Assembly (NCBI GenBank): GCA_965220825.1
Contig: OZ244839.1
Span: forward strand, 3,077,280-3,141,279
DNA: 64,000 nt
Source: Alphaproteobacteria bacterium
Lineage (GTDB): Bacteria > Pseudomonadota > Alphaproteobacteria > UBA828
Direction: 5' to 3'
The position numbers and the translations under genes are program-made. Every line of letters begins with the position of its first letter. Position 1 is the stretch's first letter. Positions 17,484-60,507 of the stretch are shown here, one piece after another. The notes under the pieces were generated by a model. The model was not told where the DNA came from. It ran no database searches and saw only the letters and a program-made list of their open reading frames with translations.

Positions 17484-21099
<3,616 letters not shown>

Positions 21100-33907: not shown

Positions 33908-33990
33908 GGCGGCAAGCCCCCCGATAGCGACGCGCGCCTCAGATATGGGAAGGCACGGGAGCCGGAACAAGGGCGTCACGGCATTGCAGA

Positions 33991-34025: not shown

Positions 34026-34076
34026 CCAGGCCCGCATGTTTTTGTTTTCGAGGAGAAGAAAAATGCGGGCCTGGAG
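34024..34076. repeat. 53-bp imperfect palindrome (14-bp perfect arms ctccaggcccgcat / atgcgggcctggag around a T-run/A-run spacer)
   Basis: Read directly from sequence. Lies between the two IS-end-like repeat copies, about 120-170 nt upstream of the arcD-like gene start. Confidence 0.7.
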
Positions 34077-34159
34077 ACCCGCGCACCGAAAAAAGCGCCG
34101 CACCCCTGAAAGCGACGGAAGCCCCCGTCGTCTATTTCGTCCCGAACCAGGCCATCTGC

Positions 34160-41689: not shown

Positions 41690-41774
41690 GGAGGGATGGC
41701 CGAGCGGTTTAAGGCGCACGCCTGGAAAGCGTGTTCACCGAAAGGTGTCCGGGGTTCGAATCCCCGTCCCTCCG
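41690..41774 (+). tRNA. tRNA-Ser (anticodon GGA)
   Basis: GGAGGGATGGCCGAGCGGTTTAAGGCGCACGCCTGGAAAGCGTG..GGGTTCGAATCCCCGTCCCTCCG: 7-bp acceptor stem, D-loop GAGCGGTTTAAGGC, anticodon loop CUGGAAA, long variable arm, TPsiC GGTTCGAATCC. CCA not encoded. Confidence 0.8.
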
Positions 41775-41933
41775 CCGCGGTCTCCGTCGCCGTCACTCTG
41801 GGCGGCAGGATCGCGCCGCCCGCGGCCCGGTTCACGCGCCAATTCGCCACCGAGCGTTTGGACGATTCTCCAGGGTCGAAAAATTTTCTAGACTGCTTCC
41901 ACGGGCTTCGGGCGAAGGGGGGGGCAACGGGCA

Positions 41934-44858: not shown

Positions 44859-45587
44859 TCAGGCGCCGTTCGATGTGGGCGCCTCTCCTCCCATGCCGAC
44901 GAATTCGCCGATCAGATCCGGATCGGAGAGCTGGTCGGGTGAGACCTCGCCGGTGAACTGGCCGCGCTGAATGATCAGCACACGCTGGGAGAGCGCGGCG
45001 ATGAAGTCTAGATTCTGCTCCACCAGCACGACCGTAAGATTGCGCCGCGCCTGAAGGGATCGGAGGATCTCGACGATCTCCTCGACGATGTTGGGCTGGA
45101 TGCCTTCCGTGGGCTCGTCCAGGAGGATCAGTCGCGGCCGACCGCAGAGGCAGCGCGCCAGCGCAAGGATCTGCTGCTCTCCGCCCGAGAGCACACGGCC
45201 CGCGCGGCCCAGCAGGGGCTTCAGCCGCGGGAACTCCTCGAGCACCTCCTCCAGAATCTCGTTCTCGTCGAACTTCCGCACCGCGAAGCCGAGGCGCAGA
45301 TTGTCCCTCACGCTCACATTAGGGAAGATTTCCCGCCCCTGGGGAACATAGCCGATACCGCGACGGCTCCGCTTGTGTGACGGCTCCCGCGTGATGGTAT
45401 CGCCTTCGAAGACGATCGAGCCGTCGGTCGTCCGGACCAGGCCGATCAGCGTCTTGAGAAGGGTGGTCTTGCCCATGCCGTTATGGCCCAGGATGCCGAT
45501 GAATTCGCCTTCCCGCACCGAGAGATCGATTCCGTGCAGGATGGGGATCCTGCCGTAGCTCGCGCGAACGCCTTGGACTTCGAGCAT
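44859..45587 (-). CDS. urtE: urea/amide ABC transporter ATP-binding protein (UrtE/LivF-like)
   Basis: Walker A GHNGMGKTT, signature LSGGEQQILALARCL, Walker B LLDEPTEG. Last gene of a five-gene urtABCDE-ordered operon. Confidence 0.75.
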   Translation of the reverse strand: MLEVQGVRASYGRIPILHGIDLSVREGEFIGILGHNGMGKTTLLKTLIGLVRTTDGSIVFEGDTITREPSHKRSRRGIGYVPQGREIFPNVSVRDNLRLGFAVRKFDENEILEEVLEEFPRLKPLLGRAGRVLSGGEQQILALARCLCGRPRLILLDEPTEGIQPNIVEEIVEILRSLQARRNLTVVLVEQNLDFIAALSQRVLIIQRGQFTGEVSPDQLSDPDLIGEFVGMGGEAPTSNGA

Positions 45588-45590
45588 GAT

Positions 45591-46319
45591 TCAAGCCGCG
45601 TGCTGTTTGCCGAGATAAATATCGCGCACCTGCTGGTTCTTCTCCAGGTTCGCCATGGTGTCCTCGATCAGGATGGCACCTTGGTGGAAGACAGTCACCC
45701 GCTCCGCGATCGCCTTGATGAACTGCATGTCGTGCTCGACGACGATGAGCGAGGCAGTCTTGTTGATCTCGTGGATCAGCTCGGTGGTCTGGTGGACCTC
45801 CTCGCCGGTCATGCCGGCGGTGGGCTCGTCGAGCAGCACCAGATTCGGCTCGCCCGTGAGCACGGTGCCGAGCTCGACCCGCTGGCGCTCGCCATGGGCG
45901 AGCTGGCCCACCAGGCGGCCGCGGATCGCGCCGAGCCCGATGCGTTCCAGAATCTCGTCCACGATGCGGTTCGCCTCGCGCCGCCCGCGATGACGCCGCG
46001 CCGCCACCCAGATGTTCTCGTGGACGCTCAGCCCGTCGAACACGCTCGGCACCTGGGTCTTGATGCCGATGCCGCGCCGCGCGATCTGGTAGGTGTGGGA
46101 GCCCGTGATGTCCATGCCGCGAAAACGGACCCGCCCGGCGGTCGCCTTGTACTGGTGGGTGAGGCACTTGAAGAAGGTGCTCTTGCCCGCGCCGTTGGGG
46201 CCGATCAGGCAGCGGAGCTCCCCTTCGGCCATGGAGAAGTCCACATTGTCCACGGCGACCACGCCGCCGAAGCGCATGGTGAGTCCCTGGGTCTCCAGAA
46301 TGGGAGGGGTTTCGGTCAT
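45591..46319 (-). CDS. urtD: urea/amide ABC transporter ATP-binding protein (UrtD/LivG-like)
   Basis: Starts MTETPPILETQGLTMRFGGVVAVDNV. Walker A GPNGAGKST, LAHGERQRVELG signature variant, LLDEPTAG. Confidence 0.75.
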   Translation of the reverse strand: MTETPPILETQGLTMRFGGVVAVDNVDFSMAEGELRCLIGPNGAGKSTFFKCLTHQYKATAGRVRFRGMDITGSHTYQIARRGIGIKTQVPSVFDGLSVHENIWVAARRHRGRREANRIVDEILERIGLGAIRGRLVGQLAHGERQRVELGTVLTGEPNLVLLDEPTAGMTGEEVHQTTELIHEINKTASLIVVEHDMQFIKAIAERVTVFHQGAILIEDTMANLEKNQQVRDIYLGKQHAA

Positions 46320-47386
46320 GGAGCCGCCTCTTCCCGCCTTGCACTGCCGCCTGCCGAGGCACCGGGCGGCCTGTCGGACCAGCCGCCCAGGACGCGCTGC
46401 ACAAGCGCGCGCGCCGTGGGCACGATACCGGCCGGCACCAGCAGGACGAACAGCATGATGATCGCGCCGAAGATCAGATAGGTGTTGGTGATCTGCTGCT
46501 GGCCGATCTCGAATTTGAGCATGAGAAGCCCGATGCATCCGATCATCGGGCCGACAAGCGTACCGAGGCCGCCGATCAGCGTCCACATGATGATTTCGGC
46601 GGCGAAGTTGAGGGCGAACACGTCCGGGTTCACGAAGGAGTTGAAGTTCACGCCCAGGCAACCGGCCAGCCCGGCGACGGCACCGCCGATGGTGAAGGTC
46701 TGCAGCTTGTGGAGCCGCACGTCGTAGCCCAGAAGTTCGGCGCGGAGCTCGTTCTCCCGGATCGCGACGGCGACCCGCCCGAAACGCGATCTCAGCAGAA
46801 GCTTGAGGCCGAAATAGCAGAGGATGAGACATCCCATGGCGAGGTGGAACACGTCGTCCGGAAAGAGGAAGGCCTTGGCGTTGCCGGGCCAGTTGATGGG
46901 CTGGATCGAGGAAATTCCGTTGAAACCCATGAGGCGCTGCTCGCCGATGGCGTATTCCTCGCCAGCGGTCGAGCGCATGAAGTTGTAGAGGATCAGGGTG
47001 ACCGCAAGCGTCACCACCGCGAGATAGACGTCGCTCAACCTGCCGTAGAACATGAAGTAGCCGAGCAGCGCCGCGAACGCCGCCGGCACGGCGATGGCGA
47101 GCAGGAAGGGCGCGGTGCTCTCCCCGATATTCCCCACGGCGATGGCGTAGGTGTAGGCGCCGAGGCCGTAGAACGCGGACTGGCCGAAGCAGAGGATGCC
47201 GCCATAGCCCCAGATGAAGCCCATGGAGAGCGCGAGGATCGCCATGGCGACGAAGAGGGTGACCTTGAAGAGGGTGAAGAGGTCGAAGATATGCGGGCCG
47301 GCGAACAGCAGGACCACCATGACGAGTCCCACGAACGCCGTGCCCCGGGCCTCCCAGCTGCCGAGGGGGATGCGCGGCATCGTCAC
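46316..47386 (-). CDS. urtC: urea/amide ABC transporter permease (UrtC/LivM-like)
   Basis: 356 aa polytopic, branched-chain-amino-acid permease family. 4-nt overlaps with neighbouring genes. Confidence 0.75.
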   Translation of the reverse strand: MTMPRIPLGSWEARGTAFVGLVMVVLLFAGPHIFDLFTLFKVTLFVAMAILALSMGFIWGYGGILCFGQSAFYGLGAYTYAIAVGNIGESTAPFLLAIAVPAAFAALLGYFMFYGRLSDVYLAVVTLAVTLILYNFMRSTAGEEYAIGEQRLMGFNGISSIQPINWPGNAKAFLFPDDVFHLAMGCLILCYFGLKLLLRSRFGRVAVAIRENELRAELLGYDVRLHKLQTFTIGGAVAGLAGCLGVNFNSFVNPDVFALNFAAEIIMWTLIGGLGTLVGPMIGCIGLLMLKFEIGQQQITNTYLIFGAIIMLFVLLVPAGIVPTARALVQRVLGGWSDRPPGASAGGSARREEAAP

Positions 47387-48252
47387 AGCGAGCGCCGGAA
47401 AATCTTGCCGGTGATGCCCTGCGGCAGCAGCCGGAGCATGACCACGGCGACGATCAGCAGGCCGACGCCGCCCAGCACCGGCGTGAACTCGTAGCTCAGA
47501 AGCTGGCGCACGGTGCCGAACACGCCGGAGGCGACCAGCGTGCCGGTTACCGCGCCGCTGCCGCCGGTAATCACGGTAATGAAGGTCTGCGCCACATAGG
47601 CGGCGCCGGCCGTCGGGATCACCTGGGAGATTGGTGCGAGCAGGCCGCCGGCGAGCCCGGTTATCGCCGCACCGACGGCGAACGTCACCATGTAGACCCG
47701 CTGCGGGCTGATGCCGAGCGCCGAGGCCTGGCTCGGGTTCTGCATGGTGCCGCGGGCGATCAGTCCCATGCGGGTGCGGGTGAGCGCGAGATAGAGCGCA
47801 ACGAAGAGCAGGACGACGATGCCGATAAGAACCATGCGGTACTGTGCAATCTTGTAGACGCCGACGTCGAAGCTTCCCATGGGCGCGGAGACGCCCTCGA
47901 TCACGTTACCGAAGATCGCGGTCACGATGCCGATGAGCAGCAGGCTGAGCCCCCAGGTCGCAATCAGCGTGTCGACCATCCTGCCGTAGAAGAAGCGGAT
48001 GAAGGTGCGCTCGACGACGATGCCGATAAGGCCCACGACAATGGGCGAGATTATCAGCATCGAGATCCAGATATTGATGCCGAGGGTCTTGGTGCAGACC
48101 ACCGTGGTGTAGGCCCCGAGCATCATGAACTCGCCATGGGCGAAGTTGATGACCCGCATCATGCCGAAAATGATCGCCAGCCCGGCGCAGGCGAGCGCCA
48201 GGCTGGCAATGCCGTTCAACACCTCGATGACGAGCAGCGCGGCCGTATCCAC
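47383..48252 (-). CDS. urtB: urea/amide ABC transporter permease (UrtB/LivH-like)
   Basis: 289 aa polytopic LivH-family permease. Confidence 0.75.
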   Translation of the reverse strand: MDTAALLVIEVLNGIASLALACAGLAIIFGMMRVINFAHGEFMMLGAYTTVVCTKTLGINIWISMLIISPIVVGLIGIVVERTFIRFFYGRMVDTLIATWGLSLLLIGIVTAIFGNVIEGVSAPMGSFDVGVYKIAQYRMVLIGIVVLLFVALYLALTRTRMGLIARGTMQNPSQASALGISPQRVYMVTFAVGAAITGLAGGLLAPISQVIPTAGAAYVAQTFITVITGGSGAVTGTLVASGVFGTVRQLLSYEFTPVLGGVGLLIVAVVMLRLLPQGITGKIFRRSL

Positions 48253-48300
48253 GGCGCGGCCCTCTGCGGCGCCCGTCCGCTCTGCCGTTCGGAAGCGCGC

Positions 48301-49548
48301 CTAGAGAATCGGCTCGAGATGCGCGTCCATGTCCGGCGTCTTGGTCAGGTCGCAGCGGTCGATCACGTCACTGGGATACAACTGCGAGAAACTCTCGAAG
48401 ATGTCCCAACTCCGGTCCTTGCACACGGCCATGTGCATGTCCTGGACGACGTGGTTGGTCACCGGATCCACCACCATGCGACCCGACGGTCCGTCCCAGG
48501 CGATGTCGCCGCTGCGGAGCGCCGCCATCACCGCCTCCCGCTCGTGGCTTCCGGCGGCCTTGACGCCGAGCGACCACAACATGGTACCGAGATAGCCGCC
48601 GATGCCCACCGAGTTGAGATATTGAGCCTGGTCGCCGAAGCGTTCCTGGTAGCGCTTGACGAAGTCCACATTGGCGGGGAGCTGGAGTTCCTGGAAGTAG
48701 GGCTGGGCGCTGACGATGCCGTTGCCTTCCTCCGCGCTGAGCTGGATATGCTCGTTGCCCACTCCGAACGTCACCGAGACGATGGGGATTTCGTTCAGCA
48801 TGCCCGCCGCATACCACTGGCGATAGAAGCCGGTATGGGCGGCGCCCACGAGACAGGTGGAGAGCCAGTCGGGCTTCGCCTCCTGGATCTTGGCGATCGC
48901 CGGGCCGAACTCCGACACGTCGAGGGGGAAGAAGTCCTTGGTGACGACCTCCGCGCCGTGCTCGCGCGAGAAGAACTCGGTCCACTTGCCGATGATCTGG
49001 GGCGCGTTGTAGTCCGCACCGATGTAGTAGCAGCGCTTGCCGTGAGTCCTGAAGCCATAGTCCGCCATGGGCTTCACCCACTGCACGGCGGTGACGCCGC
49101 TTACGAAATTGTTGATGTCGCAAACCCCGCCCTCATAGATGACGCTGTACCAGAGCAGGGTCTGGAAACGCCGGAGGATCGGGCGGATGACCTCGCGCGA
49201 GGCACTGGTGATTCCGCCATGCACCAGATCGACCTGTTCCTTGAGCGCGGCTTCCTGCGCATATTGCGCATAGAGCTCCATGTTGGACTGCGGGTCGTAC
49301 TTGATGAGCCGGACCTTCTTGCCCAGGAGGCCGCCCGATGCGTTTATCTCCTCGACCGCGAGCTCGCAGGTCTGGGTCATGGGCGTGCCGTAGATGTCGA
49401 GACCGCCCGACTGGTCGAAGATGCTGGCAATGACGATTTCGTCGTCCTGGGCGTAAGCCTTGGGCGATGCGGCGAGACCCGCAGCCACCAGCGTGGCGGC
49501 CGTGCCGGCCGTGCCTTTCAAGAACTGTCTCCGGTTCGTCTGGAACAT
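48301..49548 (-). CDS. urtA: urea/short-chain-amide ABC transporter substrate-binding protein (UrtA/FmdD-like), Tat signal
   Basis: MFQTNRRQFLKGTAGTAATLVAAGLAASPKAYAQ twin-arginine signal. About 415 aa type I PBP with UrtA-like length and composition. Confidence 0.75.
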   Translation of the reverse strand: MFQTNRRQFLKGTAGTAATLVAAGLAASPKAYAQDDEIVIASIFDQSGGLDIYGTPMTQTCELAVEEINASGGLLGKKVRLIKYDPQSNMELYAQYAQEAALKEQVDLVHGGITSASREVIRPILRRFQTLLWYSVIYEGGVCDINNFVSGVTAVQWVKPMADYGFRTHGKRCYYIGADYNAPQIIGKWTEFFSREHGAEVVTKDFFPLDVSEFGPAIAKIQEAKPDWLSTCLVGAAHTGFYRQWYAAGMLNEIPIVSVTFGVGNEHIQLSAEEGNGIVSAQPYFQELQLPANVDFVKRYQERFGDQAQYLNSVGIGGYLGTMLWSLGVKAAGSHEREAVMAALRSGDIAWDGPSGRMVVDPVTNHVVQDMHMAVCKDRSWDIFESFSQLYPSDVIDRCDLTKTPDMDAHLEPIL

Positions 49549-49745: not shown

Positions 49746-50906
49746 CTATGCGGCGAAGCCGAGGGTGCGTTCGACGAACGCGTGCAATATCGCCGCCGCA
49801 TCGACCATCTGGGCGAGCGGCACATGCTCGTTCGCGGCGTGGCTGGTGGCGCCGTTGCCGGGGCCGAAATTCACGATCTCGATGCCGTCCCGGGCGAAGA
49901 AACGGCCGTCGCTCGCGCCGAGTGCGTCGAGCACCGCCGGCGCCCGCCCCAGGTGCTCTTCGGCGGCTGCGGCGAGCGCCGAGACGAACGGTCCGTCGGG
50001 GGCGGCGGCGTAACCCGGCGTGCCGACCAGACGGCGAAGCGTGTAGGAGCCGGCGGGCTCGCCTGCGCCCGCGAGAACGGCCTCGATCTCGGCCGTCGCC
50101 GCATCGACCGGCTCGTCCGGCAGCAGGCGGCGGTCGATCCGGGCGACGCAACGGTCGGGCACGACGTTCGGGTTCTCGCCGGCGTGGATGGTGCCGATAT
50201 TCATGGTGGAGGTCTTCGCGCCGTCCCGCCGGGACGCGAGCTTCGGTGCGAGCGTCGTGTCGAGGCGGTCCAGCAGGCGCATGGCGCGAAGGATGGCGTT
50301 GTCGCCGGCGGCGGGGTCGCCCGCATGGGCGGCGCGGCCCGAGGTCTCGATCTCGAGCCACAGAATGCCGCGCTCCTCGACGACGAGCTCGTTCTCCGTC
50401 GGTGCGCCGAGCACCAGGGCGTCCGGCGCGATCAGCCCTTCCTCGCGGAGGAAGGCCGTGCCCTCCGTTCCGAGGCGCTCCTCGTCGCCGGCGAGTACGA
50501 AGACCAGGCTGCCGCGCGCCGGCCCGCCGCGCTTCGCCACCTCGCCCGCGAGCCACAGATGGACCGCAGCCGATCCCTTGCAGTTGTTCGCGCCCAGGCC
50601 GCAGATATTGCCGTCCACCATGGTCGCGGCGAACGGATCGGTACGCCAGGCCGCGGCGTCCCCGGGGGCGACCGTGTCCACATGGGCGTTGAACAGGAGG
50701 CACGGCGCGCCTTCTCCGAGCTGCGCAACCAGATTGGCGATGGGCGGAGTCCGCATTGCCACGTCCACCCGGTAGCCGTCCGCCCGCAGCCGGTCGGCCG
50801 CAAAGTCGCAGACTGCCCGTGTGTCCCCGGGCGGCGTGATGGAGGGGATGGCGATCAGTGCGGCGAGCAGGTCGTGCAGCGCCTCGGCCGACTTGTCGTC
50901 GCTCAT
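49746..50906 (-). CDS. M20 family metallo-amidohydrolase (ArgE/DapE/acylase-like)
   Basis: 386 aa. Metal-binding blocks NAHVDTV, LAGDEE, and C-terminal HAANEHV. 4-nt ATGA overlap with the upstream hydrolase gene. Confidence 0.75.
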   Translation of the reverse strand: MSDDKSAEALHDLLAALIAIPSITPPGDTRAVCDFAADRLRADGYRVDVAMRTPPIANLVAQLGEGAPCLLFNAHVDTVAPGDAAAWRTDPFAATMVDGNICGLGANNCKGSAAVHLWLAGEVAKRGGPARGSLVFVLAGDEERLGTEGTAFLREEGLIAPDALVLGAPTENELVVEERGILWLEIETSGRAAHAGDPAAGDNAILRAMRLLDRLDTTLAPKLASRRDGAKTSTMNIGTIHAGENPNVVPDRCVARIDRRLLPDEPVDAATAEIEAVLAGAGEPAGSYTLRRLVGTPGYAAAPDGPFVSALAAAAEEHLGRAPAVLDALGASDGRFFARDGIEIVNFGPGNGATSHAANEHVPLAQMVDAAAILHAFVERTLGFAA

Positions 50907-51805
50907 GCCGATGCGCCGCCGCTGGTATCGGCCGGCGTGATCGCCGAGTCGGTTAGGGAGCGCGGGTCGCGTACGCCCCAGGTGCCGCGTTCCACCCGGG
51001 CGAAGAAGTCGTCGCAGGCGCGATTGAAGGCCTCGGGCTCCTCCAGGTTGATGGTGTGGCCTGATTTGGGGATCGCGAGCAGGCCCGCCGTCGGGATCGT
51101 ACGCTTGAGGTAGAGGGTCGCGTCGAGGCAGGGCTCGTCCTCGTCGCCCACGATCAGCAGCACGGGTAACGTCATGCGCGAGAGGCCTTCCTCCAGGTCG
51201 TAGAGCGAAGGCCGCCGGGCCTGGACGCCGCGCAGGGTGTTCGCCGAGCCCGTCGCCGAGTGCGCCATCAGTTGACTGCGAAACGCGGCCCAGCCCTCCG
51301 GGTCCTTGTTCTGGAACTGGACGCGCGCGGGCCCCAGCGCATAGTCCGCACCGACGACCGTCGCGCCCTCGCGCTCGAAGCGGTCGGCAACGGCTTCGGT
51401 CTCCGACTTGAAGCCCGGACGCGCCGTCTTCCGCGCGCCGTAGCCGCAACCCGCGACCACCAGGGCGGAGGCGCGCTCGGGGCAGCGCAGCCCGATATGG
51501 AGCGCGGCGAAGCCGCCCATGCTGAGGCCGATGATATGGGCGCGGTCGATTCCCAGACGGTCGAGGATGGCGAGCGCGTCGTCCACCGCCCGCTCCTGGC
51601 CGTAGGCCTCCTTCGCCGCCGGGACGTCGGAGGGCGGATAGCCGCGGGCGTTATAGGCGATGCAGCGGTAGCGCGCGGCGAAGTGGCGCAGCTGAGGCTC
51701 CCAGCTTCGCCAGTCCCCGGCGAATTCGTGGATGAAGAGCAGCGGCGGGCCGTTGCCTGTCTCTTCGTAATAGAGCTTGATACCGTCCGAACGCGCGTAG
51801 GGCAT
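50903..51805 (-). CDS. alpha/beta-fold hydrolase
   Basis: 300 aa. Nucleophile elbow GLSMGG, HEFAGD oxyanion region, C-terminal His block (KSGHTINLEEPE). Confidence 0.7.
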   Translation of the reverse strand: MPYARSDGIKLYYEETGNGPPLLFIHEFAGDWRSWEPQLRHFAARYRCIAYNARGYPPSDVPAAKEAYGQERAVDDALAILDRLGIDRAHIIGLSMGGFAALHIGLRCPERASALVVAGCGYGARKTARPGFKSETEAVADRFEREGATVVGADYALGPARVQFQNKDPEGWAAFRSQLMAHSATGSANTLRGVQARRPSLYDLEEGLSRMTLPVLLIVGDEDEPCLDATLYLKRTIPTAGLLAIPKSGHTINLEEPEAFNRACDDFFARVERGTWGVRDPRSLTDSAITPADTSGGASA

Positions 51806-51923
51806 TGCGTTTCTCCCATTGCAGCCATGATAGCGAGTCGGGAGGCCGGTGCACCTGTTCATGCTATGATGCGCGCGAGCCAACGGTATCGCACCGTGTT
51901 CGGACAACGTTTGGAGCGGGGTC

Positions 51924-52835
51924 ATGTGTGGAATTGCGGGCGTCATGTTCAAGCATGGCGGCACCGGCCTGGAGGCCGGCCGCGCGCTGATCGATATGCT
52001 CGACGGCTGCCAGCACCGCGGACCGGATTCAACGGGCTTCGCGCTCTATGAGGAAGCGCGCGAGGGCGAGCTCAGATTCCGTTTCCTCGTGGGTGAGGGC
52101 GCCGGCAGGGACGATTCGATCGCGCGCATCCGCGGCCTCCTCGAGGAGAAGGGCGCGGAAATCGTGGACGACGAGCAGGTCGGCAACAGCTACCGCGCCG
52201 TCGTGCGCTTCTCCGGCGACGTTCAGAAGCTCGCCTACGAGATGGAGAACGCGGCGACACTCGTTTCCATCGGTGAGAGCCTCGACATCCGCAAGGATGT
52301 GGGCGGTGCGCACGATGTGGACGAACGCTTCCAGGTGAGCGCCGTAAGGGGTACGCACGGGCTCGGCCATGTCCGGCTCGCCACCGAATCGGACGTGAAG
52401 CCCGAGGCGGCCCATCCGTTCTGGGCCACGGGTTTCACCGACATCGCCATCGTGCATAACGGTCAGATCACCAATTATTGGAAGATGCGCAGGCGGTTGG
52501 AGCGGCGGGGCTTCGAGTTCCATACCGACAATGACAGCGAGCTGATCGCCGTCTATCTCGCGGACAAGCTCGCGAACGAGGCGACGCTCGAGGACGCGCT
52601 GAAGACCTCCATCGAGGACCTGGACGGCACGTTCTCCTTCCTGGTCTCCACCAAGGACGAAATCGGTTACGCCAAGGACCATCTCGCCGCCAAACCCATG
52701 ATCATGTACGAGAACGACGACATGATCGCCATCGCGTCCGAAGAGGTCTCGCTCAACCGCCTCTTCCCGGGCCGTGCGCTCGACACCCGGGAACCGCCGC
52801 CAGGGAGCTACGGTACATGGTCCAGGTCGATCTAG
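51924..52835 (+). CDS. class-II (Ntn) glutamine amidotransferase domain protein (GlxB / N-methylglutamate synthase subunit A-like)
   Basis: N-terminal MCGIAG nucleophile Cys2, about 303 aa stand-alone GATase-2 domain. Confidence 0.75.
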   Translation: MCGIAGVMFKHGGTGLEAGRALIDMLDGCQHRGPDSTGFALYEEAREGELRFRFLVGEGAGRDDSIARIRGLLEEKGAEIVDDEQVGNSYRAVVRFSGDVQKLAYEMENAATLVSIGESLDIRKDVGGAHDVDERFQVSAVRGTHGLGHVRLATESDVKPEAAHPFWATGFTDIAIVHNGQITNYWKMRRRLERRGFEFHTDNDSELIAVYLADKLANEATLEDALKTSIEDLDGTFSFLVSTKDEIGYAKDHLAAKPMIMYENDDMIAIASEEVSLNRLFPGRALDTREPPPGSYGTWSRSI

Positions 52836-54802
52836 GCGAAATCGCCGTACGCGAAGCCAACGAGGCGATCCGCGAATATGGCGCCCGTGGCGAGGATGTG
52901 GAGGTTCTCAACCCGGACGCACGGCACCATATCGGGGTCGGCCTGATCCATCCCGTCACGGTGCGGGTGCGCGGCTCGGCGGGCTATTTCTGCGCGGGCC
53001 TCGCCGACCGGGCGCGCTTCGAAATCGATAACAATGTGGGCTGGGGCCTGGGCGACAACATGTATTCCGGCACCGTGATCGTCCGCGGCAATGCGGGCGC
53101 GATCGCGGGTGTCGCCATCCGGGGTGCCGAGATCGTGATCCACGGCAATATGGGCTCCCGCGCCGGCCAGGTGATGAAGGCCGGCACGCTGTGCTGCGTC
53201 GGCAACGCCAACTTCATGGCGGGCTACATGATGTATGGCGGGCGCATCATCATCCTCGGGGAATCCGGCGAGCGCGTGGGCGAGGACATGTCCGCCGGCG
53301 AAATCTATATCGGCTCCCGCATCCATAGCCTGGGCTCGGACGCGGAACTCGCCGACATCGAGGCGTCGGAACTCGACGGCGTGCGGGAGTTCCTGGACCG
53401 TCACGAGATCCCGTTCAAGGGGGGCTTCCAGAAGGTGGTGAATGCGGGCAAGCGGCTGCGCTACGCCACCTCGGAGCGGCAAGTGCGCAGCATTCCGTTC
53501 TTCACCTTCTCCGGCAAGTCGGACTACTGGAACGACAAGGTCCAGGAGGACATCTACATCAAGTCCCAGATCGGGCGTTACCGGGTGCGGGGGTATGGCG
53601 GTGCGCGGGAGCTCCCGCACCTCTCCGACATCGCCTTCCGCAAGGATCTCTCGTCGGCGGGCACCCGGGGCGACCCGGTGGCGGCGGTCGAGATGCGGAC
53701 GGAGATCGGCGGGTTGAACGGTGCGCGCCCGCTCTCGCTCTCCATGCCGGTGATGATCGCGCCCATGAGCTACGGCGCGCTCTCACGTTCCACCAAGCAG
53801 GCGGTGGGCATGGCGTCCAGCATGGCGGGAATCGCCGAGAATACGGGCGAAGGTGGCATGAGCGACGCCCAGCGGGGTGCGGCGGAACAGCTCGTCTTCC
53901 AGTGCCTGGGCGGGCGGCTCGGCTGGAACATCCACGACATGAACCGTGCCGACGGGCTCGAAATCTATATCAGCCAGGGCGCGAAGCCCGGTTTCGGCGG
54001 CCAGCTCATGGCGAAGAAGGTCACGAAGGAGCTTGCCACCATCCGCGGCATCCCCGAGGGGATCGATCTGCGCTCGCCCTCGCGCCACCCCGATATCCTC
54101 GGTGCCGACGATCTGGTCATCAAGGTGGAGGAGTTCCGGGAGGCGACGGGCTACCGCATCCCGGTGAGCGTGAAGCTCGGCGCGGGCCGCGTCCGCGATG
54201 ACATCAAGATTGCCTACAAGGACGGCTTCGACTTCGTGGAGCTCGATGGCATGCAGGGCTCCACAGGTGCCGGCGGCGCGGAGGTGATGGAGCATGTGGG
54301 GGTGCCCACCATCGCCGCCATCGTCCAGGCCATGCGCGCGCTGGAGGAAGTGGACGGCCTCGGCAAGATGCAGATCGTCCTCATGGGCGGCATCCGCGAC
54401 GGGGTGGACGCGGTGAAGGGCCTCTGCCTCGGCGCGGACGCCGTCGCCATGGGCACCGCGGTAATCATTGCCGGCGGTTGCATCGCCTGCATGCAGTGCC
54501 ATGTGGGCCAGTGCGTGACCGGAATCGCGACCCAGGACCCGGAGCATGAGCGCCGCTACAACCCGGTGGCGGAGGCACGCAACATCCACCGCTATCTGGA
54601 GGGGGTGCGCTGGCAGATCGCGGCGCTGACCCAGGCGCTCGGCTATTCCAGCACGGTTGATCTGAATCGCGGCGATCTGGTGGCGCTTACGCGCGATGCG
54701 GCCGAGATGACGGGCCTTCCCTACGAACCGCAATACCGGGAGCGGGAACGCGAAACCGCCCTTGCACAGCGCTTCCGCGCGGTTCGCGACGGCGTGAGCT
54801 GA
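52817..54802 (+). CDS. fused GXGXG-domain + FMN-binding glutamate-synthase-central-domain protein (GlxC-GlxD / MgsB-MgsC-like fusion)
   Basis: N-terminal repeated GxGxG beta-helix region (VRGSAGYF..VIVRGNAGAIAG..IVIHGNMGSRAG..). C-terminal PF01645-like blocks (MIAPMSYGALS, ENTGEGG, SQGAKPGFGGQL, GMQGSTGAGG, MGGIRDGVDAVKGLCLGADAV, 3Fe-4S-type CxxCxxxxC GGCIACMQCHVGQC). Confidence 0.75.
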   Translation: MVQVDLGEIAVREANEAIREYGARGEDVEVLNPDARHHIGVGLIHPVTVRVRGSAGYFCAGLADRARFEIDNNVGWGLGDNMYSGTVIVRGNAGAIAGVAIRGAEIVIHGNMGSRAGQVMKAGTLCCVGNANFMAGYMMYGGRIIILGESGERVGEDMSAGEIYIGSRIHSLGSDAELADIEASELDGVREFLDRHEIPFKGGFQKVVNAGKRLRYATSERQVRSIPFFTFSGKSDYWNDKVQEDIYIKSQIGRYRVRGYGGARELPHLSDIAFRKDLSSAGTRGDPVAAVEMRTEIGGLNGARPLSLSMPVMIAPMSYGALSRSTKQAVGMASSMAGIAENTGEGGMSDAQRGAAEQLVFQCLGGRLGWNIHDMNRADGLEIYISQGAKPGFGGQLMAKKVTKELATIRGIPEGIDLRSPSRHPDILGADDLVIKVEEFREATGYRIPVSVKLGAGRVRDDIKIAYKDGFDFVELDGMQGSTGAGGAEVMEHVGVPTIAAIVQAMRALEEVDGLGKMQIVLMGGIRDGVDAVKGLCLGADAVAMGTAVIIAGGCIACMQCHVGQCVTGIATQDPEHERRYNPVAEARNIHRYLEGVRWQIAALTQALGYSSTVDLNRGDLVALTRDAAEMTGLPYEPQYRERERETALAQRFRAVRDGVS

Positions 54803-54805
54803 GCC

Positions 54806-57322
54806 ATGACGATCTCCGAGATGGACAGTGGCGGGCAGCTTCTCGCCGAACTTCCCGACGATACCGGCGACATCCACTTCGTCCCGGCGCCTTGCCAGGT
54901 TGCCTGCCCGGTGGGCACGGACGCGCCCTCCTACATCGCCTATATCTGGGAGCGGAAGTTCGAGGAGGCATTCGAGGCCATCACGGCCACCAACCCGTTC
55001 AGCTCCATCTGCGGGCGGGTGTGCGACGCGCCCTGCGAACCGGCCTGCCGGCGCACCGATTCCGACGGGCCGGTGCAGATCCGCAACCTCAAGCGCTTTG
55101 TCATGGACGCGGTCGGCCCCGATCACGCGCTGCCGCCGGTGCCGGTGACGAAGCAGCAAACCGTCGCCGTGGTGGGTTCGGGTCCCGCCGGGATGACGGC
55201 CGCGCACGATCTTTGCGTCGCGGGTTACGAGACGCATGTCTATGAAATGACGGACCGTCTCGGCGGCATGATGGTCTGGGGAATCCCCGCCTTCCGGCTC
55301 CCGACGGGCATCATCGGGGAGGATATCGATCGCATCGCCAAGCGCTGCCCCGGAATGAAGATCCATCTCGATACCGCCCTCGGGCGGGACGTGACGCTCG
55401 ATGAGTTGAAGGAGCGCCACGACGCGGTGATCCTCGCCATCGGCGCCTGGTGGGGCAAGAAGATGGGGATCCCGGGCGAGGACGATCCGAGGGTGATCGA
55501 CGGCGTGCAGTTCCTGAGGGACGTGAATGAAGGCGCCCGGCCCGAGATACCGGAGACCGTGGTGGTGGTGGGCGGCGGCGACGTGGCGATGGATGCCTGC
55601 CGGGTCGCCAAGCGCCTCCCCGGCTGCAAGCATGTCAAGGTGATCTACCGCCGGGGTCCGGCGGAGATTCCGGCGCGCAAGATCGAACTCGAGGGTGCCG
55701 TCGCCGAAGGAATCGAGTTCGTCTACCACACGCAGCAGACGGAAATCGTGAAGGACGGCAACGGGCTCGCGGTCCGCTGCCTCCGGACGACCCTTGGCGA
55801 TCCGGACGAATCGGGCCGCCGCAGCCCCGTCAACATGCCGGGGACGGAGCATGATATCTCGTGCGGCATGGTGATAGCCTCGGTGGGCCAGGAGGGGCTC
55901 TGCGACGATCTGGACGGCCGCGGCATGATGGGGACCGACCGGGTGCGGACGGACTGGGAGACCATGCGCACGAGCGATCCCAAGGTCTTTGCGGCCGGCG
56001 ACGGCGCCTTCGGCGGCTCCACCATCGTCATGGCCATGAACCACGGCCAGCGGGTCGCCTATTATGTGAAGGCTTTCCTCGAGGGGCGGGACGATCCGCT
56101 TCCCTATCGCACGCCCTTCCGTACGCGCCGCGTACCCGTGGCGCAGGATCTGAAGTGGGAGCTGCTGCCGGTGCAGCACCCCGATTTCCTCGGTCTCGGC
56201 GAGAAGCCCGTGGAGTTCCCCGAGATCGAGACCACCTACGACTGGAATGCGGCGCGGGACGAGGCGGCGCGCTGCTTCCGCTGCGATGCGGAGACGGGCT
56301 CGGCCGACTATTCGGTCGACCACCGGGAGGATATTTTCGCCATGGCGCGCACCAACCCGGTGGATGCGGCCCGTCAGACGACGACGCTGCGCAAGCGCAT
56401 GGAAGGCCGCGACGACCCCTTCCCGCCGGAGCGCCTCGGGGTGCTCGACGACCTCGCTTTCCTTCCGGCCAACCTCTCCCGCCTCGTGATCGACCCCTAT
56501 CGGGAGGCCTGCCGGATCGACACCCGGGTGGGCGAGCTTCGCCTCGACCTTCCCTTCCTCGTCGCCGGCTTCGACACCGCGCCCGCGGATGTGCGCCGCG
56601 CGGTCGGGCAGGGCCTCGCGGAGGCCGGCGCCGCCTATCTCGGGCTCGAGCCTCTGGGCGGAGAGGCCGCTTGGTTCCAGCTCGTGATGCCGGATCAGAT
56701 TCCGCCGTCGCCCGAGGCGGCGGGTATCGTCCACGCGCTGGGCCACAGCTTCCGCCCCGTGGAGCCCAATCGCCTGCGCGAGGGCCAGGTGGCGGGTCTT
56801 GCCGTCTCCTCGCCCGCCGTTCTGGAGGAGGCGATCCCCCATGCCCTCGAAGCCGGCTTCGACATGCTGCTGCTGGACGGCAGTGCCGGTCTCGGAACCT
56901 CCTGGGCGGAACTCCAGGGCCCGCCTGACCTCACGATCCTGCGGGATGCCGTTTCCATCCTGCGCCGCCTCGGGCGCGAGGAGGAGATCGACCTGGTCTA
57001 TTTCGGCGGCGTGCGCTCCGGCACCGATGCGGCGAAGGTGATCGCCATGGGCGCGGTGGCGGTGGTACTGGGAGTCGTGGTAGGGCTCGCCGCGGGCGGT
57101 GCCGTCGACCAGACCCACGCGATGCGCTTCTCCGCCGACCGCACGGACGAGGACCGCGCGCGGGGCGCCACCAACATCGTGAAGGCGTCCGCCTCGGAAG
57201 CCTCCATGATGGCCCGCTGTACGGGCAAGACGAACCTCCAGAATGTGGAGCCCGAGGACCTGCGCGCACTGACCGCCGCCACCGCCGAAGCGACCGGCAT
57301 CCCACTCGCGGGGACGCAGTAG
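54806..57322 (+). CDS. GltD-like NAD(P)H flavin oxidoreductase fused to a second, degenerate glutamate-synthase FMN-type TIM-barrel domain
   Basis: N-terminal Fe-S Cys clusters (CQVACPVG, CGRVCDAPCEPAC), two dinucleotide-binding motifs (VAVVGSGPAGMTAA, VVVVGGGDVAMD). C-terminal about 370 aa with PF01645-like blocks (LLLDGSAGLGTS, IDLVYFGGVRSGTDAAKVIAMGA). Confidence 0.65.
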   Translation: MTISEMDSGGQLLAELPDDTGDIHFVPAPCQVACPVGTDAPSYIAYIWERKFEEAFEAITATNPFSSICGRVCDAPCEPACRRTDSDGPVQIRNLKRFVMDAVGPDHALPPVPVTKQQTVAVVGSGPAGMTAAHDLCVAGYETHVYEMTDRLGGMMVWGIPAFRLPTGIIGEDIDRIAKRCPGMKIHLDTALGRDVTLDELKERHDAVILAIGAWWGKKMGIPGEDDPRVIDGVQFLRDVNEGARPEIPETVVVVGGGDVAMDACRVAKRLPGCKHVKVIYRRGPAEIPARKIELEGAVAEGIEFVYHTQQTEIVKDGNGLAVRCLRTTLGDPDESGRRSPVNMPGTEHDISCGMVIASVGQEGLCDDLDGRGMMGTDRVRTDWETMRTSDPKVFAAGDGAFGGSTIVMAMNHGQRVAYYVKAFLEGRDDPLPYRTPFRTRRVPVAQDLKWELLPVQHPDFLGLGEKPVEFPEIETTYDWNAARDEAARCFRCDAETGSADYSVDHREDIFAMARTNPVDAARQTTTLRKRMEGRDDPFPPERLGVLDDLAFLPANLSRLVIDPYREACRIDTRVGELRLDLPFLVAGFDTAPADVRRAVGQGLAEAGAAYLGLEPLGGEAAWFQLVMPDQIPPSPEAAGIVHALGHSFRPVEPNRLREGQVAGLAVSSPAVLEEAIPHALEAGFDMLLLDGSAGLGTSWAELQGPPDLTILRDAVSILRRLGREEEIDLVYFGGVRSGTDAAKVIAMGAVAVVLGVVVGLAAGGAVDQTHAMRFSADRTDEDRARGATNIVKASASEASMMARCTGKTNLQNVEPEDLRALTAATAEATGIPLAGTQ

Positions 57323-57650: not shown

Positions 57651-58946
57651 ATGCGCGTTCACCTGAATTACGGCCGCGGCAAGCGTGCGGTAGAGCTTCC
57701 GGAGGGGTGTGACGTCACCGTCATTGCCAAGCAGGCGATGCCGGTGCTGGCGGCGCCTTCCGCCGCCATGGCGCGGGCGCTCGCCGAGCCCGTGGGCTGT
57801 GCGCCGCTCGCCAAGGAGGCCGCGGGCGCGGCGAGCGCCTGCATCCTGATCTGCGACGTCACCCGCCCGGTACCCAACGGGGTCATTCTTCCGGTTCTCG
57901 TCCGCGCCCTGCTGGGTGCCGGCCTTGCGCCCGATTCCATCACGGTGCTGGTGGCGACCGGCCTGCACCGGCCCAATGAAGGGGCGGAACTCGCGGAGCT
58001 GGTCGGCGACCCCTGGGTGCTCGAGACGGTCCGGGTCGAGAACCACTTCGCCCGCAGCGACGCCGACCACCGCTTCGTGGGCCGCACCCGGAGCGGCACG
58101 GTCGTCCGGCTGGACCGGCGCTTTCTGGAAGCGGACCTCAAGATCGCGACGGGGCTGGTGGAGCCCCACTTCATGGCGGGCTGGTCCGGCGGGCGCAAGG
58201 TGGTGGCGCCCGGCATTGCCCACGCGGAGACGGTGACGACGTTTCACAGCGCGCGCTTCATGGAGCACCCCGACTGCGCGAACTGCGTGCTGGAGGGCAA
58301 TCCGCTGCACGCGGAGCAGCTTGAAATCGTGGGCATGCTGGGGCCCTTGCGGGCGGTCAATGCCGTCATCGACGACGAGCGGCGCGTCTCCTTCCTCAAC
58401 TATGGCGAGATCGTCGCGAGCCATGCGGCGGCGGTCGGTTTCGCCGCGCCCTTCGCCACCGTGTCCGTGAGCGAGCGCTTCGCCACCGTGCTCACCTCCG
58501 CCGCCGGCCACCCCCTCGACCAGACCTACTATCAGACGGTCAAGGGCATGGTGGGACCCATGCAGATTCTGGCGCCCGGCGGGGACCTGATCGTGGCCTC
58601 CGCCTGCTCCGGCGGTTTGGGGTCGGCGGACTATGCCGAGGCCCAGCGCCGCCTGGTGGCGCTCGGCCCCGAGCGCTTCCTCGCCGGCATCGAGGGAAAG
58701 ACTCACGCCGCCATCGACGAGTGGCAGACCGAGATGCAGCTCAAACCCATGCGCGTGGGCACGATCCATCTCTTCACCGAGGGGCTCTCGGAAGAGGAGC
58801 GTGCGCTCACCGGCGTCCGCACCGTGGACTCCCTCGAGGGCGCCGTCGCCGAGGCCGCCGCGCGCCACGCCCGCAACGGCGACCGCCGCATCGCGGTTAT
58901 CCCCGAAGGCCCCTACGTCGTGCCGCTTCACCGGCACGCGGCGTAG
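57651..58946 (+). CDS. LarA-family protein (nickel-pincer-nucleotide-dependent 2-hydroxyacid racemase/epimerase-like, DUF2088)
   Basis: 431 aa. LVATGLHRP and HFMAGWSGGRK blocks characteristic of LarA N-terminal domain (Lys for NPN tethering), second catalytic His region. Confidence 0.7.
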   Translation: MRVHLNYGRGKRAVELPEGCDVTVIAKQAMPVLAAPSAAMARALAEPVGCAPLAKEAAGAASACILICDVTRPVPNGVILPVLVRALLGAGLAPDSITVLVATGLHRPNEGAELAELVGDPWVLETVRVENHFARSDADHRFVGRTRSGTVVRLDRRFLEADLKIATGLVEPHFMAGWSGGRKVVAPGIAHAETVTTFHSARFMEHPDCANCVLEGNPLHAEQLEIVGMLGPLRAVNAVIDDERRVSFLNYGEIVASHAAAVGFAAPFATVSVSERFATVLTSAAGHPLDQTYYQTVKGMVGPMQILAPGGDLIVASACSGGLGSADYAEAQRRLVALGPERFLAGIEGKTHAAIDEWQTEMQLKPMRVGTIHLFTEGLSEEERALTGVRTVDSLEGAVAEAAARHARNGDRRIAVIPEGPYVVPLHRHAA

Positions 58947-58959
58947 AGCGGTTCCATCG

Positions 58960-60507
58960 ATGGCTGAACCTGCGCGCCGGCGCGGGGCGAACCCCGTCTG
59001 CCTGTTGGCGGCGACGGTCATCGGCTCCGCTCTCGTCTATATCGACGGCACCGCGGTCAATGTCGCGCTTCCCGTGGCGCAGCGGGATCTGGGCGCGGAC
59101 CTGGTGGACCTGCAGTGGGTGATCGAGTCCTACGCGATCATGCTGGCGGCGCTCCTCCTTCTCGGTGGCGCACTGGGGGACCGCTACGGACGCAAGCGGT
59201 TGTTCGCGCTGGGCCTCTCCCTGTTCGCCGTCGCCTCCGTCTGGTGCGGGATGGCGCCGGATGTGGGCCAGCTCATCGGTGCCCGGGCGCTCCAGGGAGC
59301 GGGCGGTGCCCTGCTGATTCCGGGGAGCCTCGCACTGATTACCGCCCATGTGCCGCCGGAGCGCCGAGGCCGCGCCATCGGCACCTGGGCTGCGTTCTCT
59401 TCCGTTTCGGTGGCGATCGGGCCGGTGCTCGGCGGCTGGCTGATCGATCATGCGTCCTGGCGCTGGGTCTTCTACATCAACCCGCCGCTTGCGCTCGTCG
59501 TCCTGGCACTGCTTGCGGCCGGTGTGCCCGAGAGCCGGGACGAAAGCCGTAGTGGACGCTTCGACTATGTCGGTGCGGCGCTCGTGGCGCTCGGCCTCGG
59601 CGTGCTTGTCTACGGGCTGCTGGAGGCCGCACGCCACGGCTTCGACGACCCTGCGGCAGCGGTTTCGGTTGCGGCCGGCGTGGTGCTGCTCGCGGCTTTC
59701 ATCAGGGTGGAAGCACGGGCCGAGGTACCGATGATGCCGCTTGGTCTCTTCCGTTCCAGGGTCTTCAGCGGCGCGAACGCCGCCACCTTTTTTCTCTATG
59801 CGGCGCTCGGCGGCGGGTTCTTCTTCCTCTCCTTCAACATGGTGCAGGTGCAGGGCTGGAGCGCGACGGAGGCGGGCCTCGCCTTCCTGCCCCTGATCCT
59901 CTCGATCTCCGTCCTCTCCCAGGCGGTGGGCCGGACGGTGGATCGCGTTGGCGCCCGCTGGCTGCTGATCGCGGGGCCCGCGCTTTCGGCGGTGGGCTAC
60001 GGGCTCTTCATTCTGCCGGGTCCGGACGCGGACTACTGGCAGACATTCTTTCCCGCCATGGCGGCGCTCGGCGTCGGGACCGGCATCGCGGTGGCGCCGC
60101 TCACATCCGTGGCCATGGGCGCCGCGCCCGTCGCCCAGTCGGGCGTCGCGGCCGGTGTCAACAACACGGCGTCCCGCTTCGGCACCGTGCTCATGCTCGC
60201 GGTCTTCGGCCTGATCGTGGTCGCGGCCTTCAACGCCCGCCTGGATGTGGAGCCCGTGCTCGAAAGCCTCTCGCCCGCGGCCCGTGCCGCGTTCGATGCG
60301 GAGCGGCTCAACCTCGCGGCCGCGGCACTCCCCGAGGGGCTTCCGGCCGACGCGGCCGCCGCCCTTCGCGCCGCGGTGGAAGAGGGCTTCGTCGGGGGTT
60401 TCCGCATCGTGATGGCGGTCTGCGCCGGCCTGGCGTTGCTTGCGAGCCTGGCCGCCGCCCTCACCGTCCCGTCCGGCGGCGCCCGCGCGCCGGTGGACGG
60501 CCGCTGA
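58960..60507 (+). CDS. MFS transporter, DHA2 (14-TMS EmrB/QacA) family
   Basis: 515 aa. LGGALGDRYGRKRLF motif A region, 14 hydrophobic segments. 13 nt downstream of the LarA-like gene. Confidence 0.8.
   Translation: MAEPARRRGANPVCLLAATVIGSALVYIDGTAVNVALPVAQRDLGADLVDLQWVIESYAIMLAALLLLGGALGDRYGRKRLFALGLSLFAVASVWCGMAPDVGQLIGARALQGAGGALLIPGSLALITAHVPPERRGRAIGTWAAFSSVSVAIGPVLGGWLIDHASWRWVFYINPPLALVVLALLAAGVPESRDESRSGRFDYVGAALVALGLGVLVYGLLEAARHGFDDPAAAVSVAAGVVLLAAFIRVEARAEVPMMPLGLFRSRVFSGANAATFFLYAALGGGFFFLSFNMVQVQGWSATEAGLAFLPLILSISVLSQAVGRTVDRVGARWLLIAGPALSAVGYGLFILPGPDADYWQTFFPAMAALGVGTGIAVAPLTSVAMGAAPVAQSGVAAGVNNTASRFGTVLMLAVFGLIVVAAFNARLDVEPVLESLSPAARAAFDAERLNLAAAALPEGLPADAAAALRAAVEEGFVGGFRIVMAVCAGLALLASLAAALTVPSGGARAPVDGR

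Follow-up and report, generated by a model that had tools for sequence, protein, structure and literature searches.

A putative three-subunit enzyme of the glutamate synthase type, with a reductase fused to a degenerate barrel, and its lineage-specific neighbours in an alphaproteobacterial genome

Three consecutive plus-strand genes (51924-57322), called the triad below, were analysed in a 64,000-nucleotide (nt) stretch of DNA from an Alphaproteobacteria bacterium of the UBA828 lineage (contig OZ244839.1, positions 3,077,280 to 3,141,279; the whole stretch is called the window, and coordinates refer to it unless another locus is named). From their sequences we propose, with moderate confidence, that these genes encode one three-subunit enzyme of the glutamate synthase (GOGAT) type, which would carry out a reductive amidotransfer in which NAD(P)H supplies the electrons and ammonia is the transferred group. 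GOGAT chemistry is favoured because the cysteines of a [3Fe-4S] cluster, the GEGG and GGQL motifs of the synthase site and a subunit with NAD(P)H, flavin adenine dinucleotide (FAD) and Fe-S modules occur together. GOGAT is the main nitrogen route into biomass; in bacteria it is known as GltBD and as the ferredoxin-dependent enzyme. The triad passed no curated NCBIfam model, and a literature search on N-methylglutamate synthase, glxBCD and GXGXG proteins with gltD did not find this architecture described, in agreement with an earlier note, made by a model from the DNA sequence alone, which had presented the locus as a candidate undescribed island.

The genes of the window, the GC content of which is 65-71%, were chosen by third-position GC and domain matches, and Pfam and NCBIfam annotation of the products confirmed the genes at 49746-57322 with the domains that the earlier note had assigned to them. 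Subunit 1 (51924-52835, 303 amino acids, aa) is a class-II glutamine amidotransferase of the N-terminal nucleophile (Ntn) type. It is GlxB/MgsA-like, being 38% identical to Rhizobium etli GlxB, and belongs to the GATase_6/7 type (E = 1.5e-20 and 4.7e-19, respectively), unlike the GATase_2 domain of GltB. Its N-terminus reads MCGI, so that Cys1 is exposed once the Met is removed, and MCGI is present in 62 of 65 family members. Its gene overlaps by 19 nt with that of subunit 2 (52817-54802, 661 aa), in which a GlxC-like GXGXG beta-helix (approx. aa 1-215; PF01493, 52 bits) is fused to a GlxD-like flavin mononucleotide (FMN) synthase barrel (approx. aa 230-640; PF01645, 302 bits). The full-length protein aligns with GlxC and then with GlxD (35% and 40% identity, respectively), and its identity to the FMN domain of Escherichia coli GltB is 33%.

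The barrel of subunit 2 carries three GltB-type [3Fe-4S] cysteines, GGCIACMQCHVGQC, which align exactly with GC....ICHLNNC of E. coli GltB and, by phmmer, with the chains 7mfm and 2vdc. These cysteines are kept in 59 of 60 members, and the site motifs PMSYGALS, NTGEGG and QGAKPGFGGQL are conserved in 59-60 of the 60. The synthase site (NTGEGG / QGAKPGxGGQL / ..IR) is the same as in E. coli GltB.

Subunit 3 (54806-57322, 838 aa) is a GltD-like fusion consisting of an N-terminal Fer4_20 and Pyr_redox_2 module and a C-terminal barrel. The N-terminal module (aa 1-499, 54806-56302; Fer4_20 81 bits, Pyr_redox_2 103 bits) is an NAD(P)H-FAD oxidoreductase of the GltD/NfnB/StnC type. Its eight conserved cysteines (PCQVACP, CGRVCDAPCEPAC, RCFRCD) suffice for two [4Fe-4S] clusters, and both these and the dinucleotide motifs GSGPAG and GGGDVAMD...YRR are kept in 70-75 of 77 members. 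The protein obtained 397 bits with the NCBIfam model PRK12771, under the cut-off of 516, and it also scored under the cut-offs of TIGR01317 and TIGR01318.

The C-terminal module (aa 500-838, 56303-57322) was recognised by BLASTP, AlphaFold and Foldseek as a degenerate GlxD-like triosephosphate isomerase (TIM) barrel. BLAST derives it from a GlxD-type barrel: it is 35% identical to R. etli GlxD, and 29% identical (E = 6e-25) to a GlxD-type protein encoded in the related locus L079. The Pfam matches were weak (FMN_dh and Glu_synthase), and no match of the PDB sequence search covered residues 500-838. Strands and helices alternate in the AlphaFold model (mean predicted local distance difference test score, pLDDT, 77; predicted template modelling score, pTM, 0.73), as would be expected of a beta/alpha barrel, and the Foldseek matches of the model were FMN-oxidoreductase barrels and the alpha subunit of glutamate synthase, 6s6s_A (TM scores 0.46-0.51). 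The alignment shows that the module retains GGVRSGTDAAK and has lost MSxGALS, GEGG and QGAKPG together with the cluster cysteines and some 60 substrate-loop residues. Two peripheral GlxD motifs are kept in it (DDLxFLPANLSRLVIDPYREAC and the tail MMARCTGKTNL..EPEDLRALT..GIPLAGT), and precisely these two motifs have diverged in the catalytic barrel of subunit 2. The complementary pattern suggests a duplication followed by subfunctionalisation, one barrel remaining catalytic and the other, in subunit 3, probably serving as a non-catalytic docking or scaffold domain.

Two other assignments of subunit 3 were tried and rejected. The C-terminal barrel does not correspond to the central domain of GltB at the sequence level, since hhalign against E. 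coli GltB matched the FMN domain only, and weakly (E = 0.09); thus any likeness to that central domain can only be one of function. Dihydropyrimidine dehydrogenase also has a GltD-like FAD/NAD(P)H/2x[4Fe-4S] module fused N-terminally to a TIM barrel. However, the matches to this enzyme were confined to the N-terminal module (residues 24-428), and the fused barrel of the triad is GlxD-derived, not of the dihydroorotate dehydrogenase type, and has lost its flavin-site motifs.

The triad shares with GltBD of E. coli and Azospirillum brasilense the Cys1 amidotransferase, the FMN barrel with C-x5-C-x4-C, the GXGXG beta-helix and the FAD/NAD(P)H Fe-S subunit, and the motifs of the synthase site are identical. 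All five GOGAT modules are thus represented, with the exception of a true central domain: no Pfam match of Glu_syn_central (PF04898) was obtained in the triad proteins. The order of the modules is different. While GltBD consists of amidotransferase-central-FMN-GXGXG and a separate GltD, the triad is split and permuted into amidotransferase, GXGXG-FMN and GltD-barrel proteins, and its identity to GltBD (33% in the FMN domain and 33% in GltD) leaves it far under the NCBIfam equivalog cut-offs. Since both the domain order and the central domain differ, the triad is placed by its sequence outside GltBD.

The mechanism that we propose is modelled on GltBD. Subunit 1 would hydrolyse the gamma-amide of glutamine with its Cys1, and the ammonia would be handed on to subunit 2 and add to 2-oxoglutarate in its FMN barrel; the resulting imine would be reduced by FMNH2. 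NAD(P)H would supply the electrons, which would travel by way of the FAD and the two [4Fe-4S] clusters of subunit 3 to the [3Fe-4S] cluster of subunit 2, and the net reaction would be Gln + 2-oxoglutarate + NAD(P)H -> 2 Glu. The degenerate barrel on the reductase would act as a docking domain, a role comparable with that of the cofactor-less central domain in GltB. That the three proteins form one complex is argued for by natural fusions, in which subunits 2 and 3 are joined in one chain of about the size of GltB (P0158, 1486 aa, and an open reading frame, ORF, of the related locus L045, 1371 aa).

By sequence the closest known relatives of the triad are GlxBCD/MgsABC (35-40% identity), the N-methylglutamate synthases, as the earlier note had correctly supposed. 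Amidotransferase, GXGXG and FMN barrel are encoded in this order in both systems, and the subunits are indeed fused differently: GlxC and GlxD are joined in the 661-aa protein, and the 838-aa GltD-like reductase, fused to the degenerate GlxD copy, is an addition that is always present. The canonical MgsABC reaction is redox-neutral and needs no reductase. Of five canonical GlxD/MgsC sequences that were compared, four lack the [3Fe-4S] cysteines that are kept in the triad, which fits a redox-neutral reaction, and all five have TGDGG and QGAKPGGGGML in place of the GEGG and GGQL of the triad, a signature whose family-defining character we infer from these five sequences. Because the subunit structure, the site signature and the gene context all differ, the sequences place the triad outside MgsABC as well. 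The glutamate-dependent, MgsABC-like chemistry that the earlier note had suggested is accordingly not favoured, since the site signatures and the reductase point to an NAD(P)H-driven enzyme of the GOGAT type and not to a redox-neutral N-methylglutamate synthase.

The gene contexts of the relatives bear on the same question. One genome per species was scanned in 185,579 species, 413 relatives of the triad were found, and the best 80 of these were compared in detail; a neighbourhood survey covered 81 loci. Their ORFs were clustered across the loci and the outcome was cross-checked by tblastn with the window proteins; the view of gene context so obtained reaches over 64 kb of the source genome and about 20 kb per relative. 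In about 20 loci of other lineages an XRE-cupin regulator, the triad and glnT/gmaS follow each other in this order. The glnT product of these loci obtained 676 bits with TIGR03105 (cut-off 470) and shares 60-66% of its residues with R. etli GlnT; in several of the loci folD, the gene of a SolA-like oxidase and soxBDAG come next. The order matches that of the canonical XRE-glxBCD-glnT-soxBDAG clusters of R. etli, Aminobacter and Falsirhodobacter, so that the XRE regulator and glnT are a neighbourhood shared with GlxBCD/MgsABC.

Partner genes of this kind had been stated in the earlier note to be absent, and as an argument this holds for the lineage of the window only: tblastn and Pfam scans of the remaining ORFs detected none of gmaS, mgdABCD, amt, folD and canonical gltB in the 64 kb, and glnT and sox genes were likewise not found there, while the approx. 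20 related loci do have glnT/gmaS beside the triad.

A separate observation concerns the FAD oxidase of these loci. A SolA/N-methyltryptophan-oxidase-like protein of about 395 aa is encoded between folD and soxB in L001/L030, L032, L036 and L040, and it is absent from the canonical glxBCD-glnT-sox clusters inspected.

It was considered on this basis whether the triad is a reductive MgsABC variant, that is, an NAD(P)H-dependent N-methyl- or N-alkylglutamate synthase. In such an enzyme gamma-glutamylmethylamide, or a different gamma-glutamyl amide, would be split by the amidotransferase, and the amine set free would condense with 2-oxoglutarate and be reduced to an N-alkylglutamate; methylamine clusters would pass the nitrogen of the amine to glutamate without free ammonia, and in the lineage of the window the amide donor would come from an imported compound. 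The XRE-triad-glnT/gmaS loci, several of which have folD and soxBDAG as in the canonical glxBCD clusters, speak for this enzyme, as do the nearest sequence relatives, GlxB, GlxC and GlxD, and the fact that a second complete Glx set is found within 10 kb of the triad in L079 only. However, the synthase site has the Glu and Gln of GltB where all the canonical GlxD/MgsC sequences examined have Asp and Met, the canonical enzyme has no need of a reductase and mostly lacks the cluster cysteines, and about 60 of the 80 loci, together with the window, have no glnT/gmaS within 10 kb (most of them have no sox genes either, and the window has none in 64 kb). Furthermore, canonical glxBCD is kept beside the triad in L079. 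Taken together, we consider an N-alkylglutamate synthase rather unlikely.

The locus L079 (a Rhodospirillales metagenome-assembled genome, MAG; 1077-17575 of that record) contains three Glx-type sets side by side. The first consists of a glutamine synthetase (GS)-like gene of 562 aa followed by an amidotransferase, a GXGXG protein and an FMN barrel that has the cysteines and reads GGHL at the motif; the triad comes second; and the third is a canonical glxBCD before glnT, with a GlxD that is 85% identical to R. etli GlxD. Since the canonical glxBCD is also there before the same glnT, the triad of L079 is not simply an N-methylglutamate synthase. The GS-like set, which is found together with the triad in L040 too, is by its sequence a further uncharacterised variant.

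Several points weigh against the assignment of the triad to the GOGAT type. Its nearest sequence relatives are GlxBCD/MgsABC and not GltB. In about 19 loci no Mgs-like set other than the triad lies beside glnT/gmaS, and folD and soxBDAG are contiguous in several of them; because the triad occupies there exactly the position that glxBCD has in the canonical clusters, it is suggested that the triad can carry out the MgsABC step. The reductase module is closer by score to StnC/NfnB-type proteins than to GltD: in the PDB profile matches of residues 28-499 the values were 366 bits for 9bov, 350 for NfnA (9n5u) and 252 for GltD (2vdc_G), and the best-scoring PDB chains were of the StnC/NfnA type (9bov, 9n5u, 8oh5). 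Its electron partner could for this reason differ from that of GltD. Further, the two positions at which Glu/Asp and Gln/Met distinguish the families are presumably Glu903 and Gln978 of the Synechocystis ferredoxin-dependent GltS, which we take to lie next to the imine; literature confirmation of this was not found. Asp and Met at these sites would, on the same assumption, make room for an N-methyl group, which we regard as an unconfirmed lead only. Finally, the substrates of all members of the triad family are ones that we infer.

The preferred assignment to a GOGAT-type enzyme is compatible with the other surroundings of the triad. An ammonium transporter adjoins it in 17 loci and GlnE lies near it in the clade of the window; these varied nitrogen contexts (Amt, glnT, GlnE) fit an enzyme of general use, which would pass amide nitrogen to glutamate.

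The best 80 of the 413 relatives are all MAGs and belong to Alphaproteobacteria, Gammaproteobacteria (including Acidiferrobacterales), Planctomycetota, Latescibacterota and Opitutales; judged by the record names, many come from marine or sponge samples. Across these loci the identity to the window proteins is 66-89% for subunit 1, 73-90% for subunit 2 and 63-84% for subunit 3, and since identities of 63-90% are maintained across several phyla, the sequences indicate a strong constraint on the triad. The three genes are strictly syntenic, and the 19-nt overlap of the first two genes was seen in the window and in L013, L022, L041 and L047, the loci for which coordinates were printed. As to the 838-aa protein, there are thousands of relatives at the level of GltD; its best 120 full-length matches show 66-84% identity across 96-100% of its length, and such full-length relatives are labelled by the sources only as 'FAD-dependent oxidoreductase' or 'glutamate synthase' (family protein). 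With the C-terminal barrel alone as query, only 511 cluster representatives were obtained among 1.84 billion, the 1486-aa fusion P0158 being one of them. Among the plasmids of PLSDB no full-length relative of the 838-aa protein was found (0 of 195 records with at least 80% coverage), and the PLSDB relatives of the 661-aa protein were canonical glxCD only.

So high a conservation is typical of core metabolism, and the triad might be the sole glutamate synthase of its hosts, that is, a housekeeping GOGAT in split form with unrelated neighbours. It is in line with this that canonical gltB was found neither in the window nor near the triad in any of the 81 loci, and that GlnE and Amt lie near the triad in several lineages; the search for gltB, however, reached over the 64 kb and the approx. 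20 kb per relative given above. A 1470-aa neighbour of the triad in L076 was considered as a candidate and rejected, as it is not GltB. Against a housekeeping role stand the rarity of the family (413 of 185,579 species), the fact that canonical gltBD is the rule within Alphaproteobacteria, and contexts that look accessory, such as methylamine clusters and, in the window, a tRNA-flanked block. A sole housekeeping GOGAT is thus held to be unlikely.

A wider interpretation can be put forward only tentatively. With the triad, bacterial enzymes of the glutamate synthase type would have a third architectural class, so far unrecognised, which would transfer the nitrogen of gamma-glutamyl amides reductively to 2-oxoglutarate. 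It would go back to a GlxBCD/MgsABC-type ancestor and four changes: the B and C subunits would have been joined, the FMN barrel doubled with one copy degenerating, a GltD/NfnB-type reductase taken up, and the genes spread horizontally to uncultured bacteria of several phyla, most of which appear to be marine. Its nitrogen donors would be glutamine and possibly gamma-glutamylmethylamide, and the methylamine, ammonium and imported-amide modules would share this sink without free ammonia. If there is such a third form, nitrogen assimilation and methylamine use in marine and symbiont metagenomes would have to be read differently. The triad is widespread in uncultured bacteria and extremely conserved, while its chemistry is probably familiar. 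The family is a natural experiment in enzyme evolution, in which an FMN barrel was apparently duplicated and one copy became a probable docking domain, and the residue pair Glu/Gln versus Asp/Met is a candidate determinant of the specificity for ammonia or methylamine.

The hydrolase, deacylase and importer genes upstream of the triad all lie on the minus strand. An alpha/beta-fold hydrolase (50903-51805, 300 aa; Abhydrolase_1, E = 1.9e-23), whose start codon and Shine-Dalgarno sequence are visible in the sequence, is the first gene of the operon and is followed by an M20 metallo-deacylase of the ArgE/DapE family (49746-50906, 386 aa; TIGR01910, Pfam Peptidase_M20 and M20_dimer). The stop codon of the former and the start codon of the latter overlap in ATGA, so the translational coupling reported by the earlier note was confirmed in the sequence. 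After a gap of 197 nt come the five genes of a urea/short-amide-type ATP-binding cassette (ABC) importer (44859-49548): a binding protein with a twin-arginine translocation (TAT) signal (48301-49548; Peripla_BP_6, TAT_signal), two permeases (47383-48252 and 46316-47386; BPD_transp_2) and two ATPases (approx. 45591-46340 and 44859-45587; ABC_tran). A cytochrome P450 (43286-44785; Pfam p450, 4e-49) follows after 73 nt on the same strand. The hydrolase and the deacylase had been described as divergent from the importer and as facing the triad. Neither is the case: the seven genes from the hydrolase to the last ATPase are co-directional on the minus strand, and the hydrolase and the deacylase stand back-to-back with the triad across the 118 nt (51806-51923) between the start of the hydrolase and that of the amidotransferase. 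This intergenic region is probably the shared promoter/regulatory region of both strands. A scan of it for the sigma-70 consensus gave no match, and an Rfam search of the intergenic regions detected no riboswitch or RNA motif but one tRNA only.

The assignments of these genes remain at the level of families. The organisation of the importer in five genes and its Peripla_BP_5/6-type binding protein resemble Urt and FmdDEF-AmiC: the best PDB matches of the binding protein were 8tg1 and urea-binding UrtA proteins (127-154 bits) and AmiC (98 bits). However, it obtained only 294 bits with TIGR03669 and 208 bits with TIGR03407, where the cut-offs are approx. 495, and no urease or amidase gene is adjacent. 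The deacylase passed TIGR01910 (235.4 bits, cut-off 217.6) and matched PF01546 and PF07687; its best PDB matches were DapE and ArgE (approx. 109 bits), and no equivalog cut-off of either was reached. The best NCBIfam matches of the hydrolase were PcaD (108 bits) and RutD (71 bits), both far under the cut-offs.

Downstream of the triad a LarA-like nickel-pincer 2-hydroxyacid racemase (57651-58946, plus strand, 431 aa; Lar_N 177 bits, LarA_C 52 bits) is encoded, which matches the broad-spectrum lactate racemase 9eid of the PDB with 324 bits. Directly 3' of it lies a transporter of the major facilitator superfamily (MFS; 58957-60507, plus strand, start codon approximate; MFS_1, 197 bits). LarA orthologues with 56-79% identity stand beside the triad in 18 loci.

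The earlier note had treated the importer, the M20 and hydrolase genes and the triad as a unit, and the survey bears this out for one lineage only. The importer, M20 and hydrolase genes on one side of the triad and LarA on the other are limited to an alphaproteobacterial lineage whose subunit 3 is at least 72% identical to that of the window. Of the 16 loci with at least 80% identity in subunit 3, M20 was found in 15, LarA in 13, the hydrolase in 12 and the binding protein in 10; the hydrolase orthologues are 73-77% identical in 12 close loci and 61% in L019. At 72% identity, L022 and L023 keep the binding protein (81% identical), M20 (55-56% identical), LarA and MFS, and have lost the hydrolase. 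In L017 and L019 LarA, MFS and a GlpD-like FAD dehydrogenase are kept, and M20 and the binding protein are absent. LarA begins 58 nt after the triad in L019. MFS orthologues of 52-54% identity follow LarA in L017, L019, L022 and L023, with an overlap of 4 nt in L022. The importer, M20 and hydrolase genes are absent from the other approx. 60 loci; since this is so, the triad is an autonomous module and has no fixed pathway with these neighbours. As the accompanying genes go with the triad in one lineage only, and not uniformly even there, the 'island' is an association peculiar to that lineage and does not amount to a defined pathway.

The oxygenase is a further variable element. The slot 3' of the importer ATPases is occupied by the P450 in the window and by a PhyH dioxygenase and a luciferase-like monooxygenase in close relatives (L003, 665-2628 of that locus), and tblastn of the 80 loci found no P450 orthologue in any of them.

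These findings bear on whether the importer, the hydrolase, the deacylase and the triad constitute one dedicated route for an amide, ureido or N-acyl compound, in which the triad would act on the deacylated product instead of glutamine. The divergent arrangement spans only 118 nt, which suggests shared regulation; the block is kept in the clade with 80-84% identity in the numbers given above and partially at 72% (L022, L023), and an oxygenase of one kind or another always comes after the importer. On the other hand, the co-occurrence does not extend beyond the one alphaproteobacterial lineage and the triad is equally conserved in the approx. 60 loci without these neighbours, the losses in L022/L023 and L017/L019 affect different members of the set, the accessory enzymes vary between relatives, and the triad of the window clade is not distinguished at its catalytic motifs. 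A dedicated route of this kind appears quite improbable.

Under the preferred GOGAT-type assignment, the enzyme would in this organism be the nitrogen sink of a lineage-specific acquisition island, and all its links to the neighbouring genes are of a putative nature. The divergent operon would import a small compound of the urea, amide or ureido type, which would be processed by the oxygenase (P450), the alpha/beta hydrolase and the M20 deacylase, and the ammonia or amino acid set free would be channelled to GS and the triad. LarA and the MFS transporter, joined in relatives by the FAD dehydrogenase, may supply a 2-oxoacid skeleton from a 2-hydroxyacid.

Some further features of the surroundings were recorded. 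In the closest relatives of the window (L002-L014), approx. 5-9 kb 3' of the triad, LarA is followed by a homologue of tungsten-type aldehyde:ferredoxin oxidoreductase; a ThiS/MoaD-like protein of 80 aa with GG at its C-terminus and a glnE in convergent orientation (GS adenylyltransferase, 1006 bits) are found there as well. In their place the window has the MFS transporter and a molybdopterin oxidoreductase. A tRNA gene (41690-41774, 59 bits) lies between lepA and the block with the P450, the importer and the triad, and could possibly be an island boundary; the block 3' of it opens with a D-amino-acid dehydrogenase (41892-43193; PRK00711, 430 bits, cut-off 383).

Farther from the triad, the minus strand carries an arginine deiminase (31213-32442), a gene of the amino-acid/carbamate-kinase family (30057-31118) and a DcuC-family carrier (32474-33979). 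An insertion sequence (IS)-type integrase (rve, 34257-35270) adjoins the arginine deiminase genes and the GC content falls to 0.63 at 28-30 kb; the region 30057-35270 may be an acquired arginine deiminase block. The genes dnaA (14556-16049), dnaN (16100-17452) and gyrB (18466-21099) lie together, which means that the window spans the chromosomal replication origin region, approx. 30 kb from the triad. An RPE65-family carotenoid-cleavage oxygenase (6637-8202, 358 bits) is encoded in the neighbourhood of genes for a GDSL lipase and for a MacB-like ABC permease.

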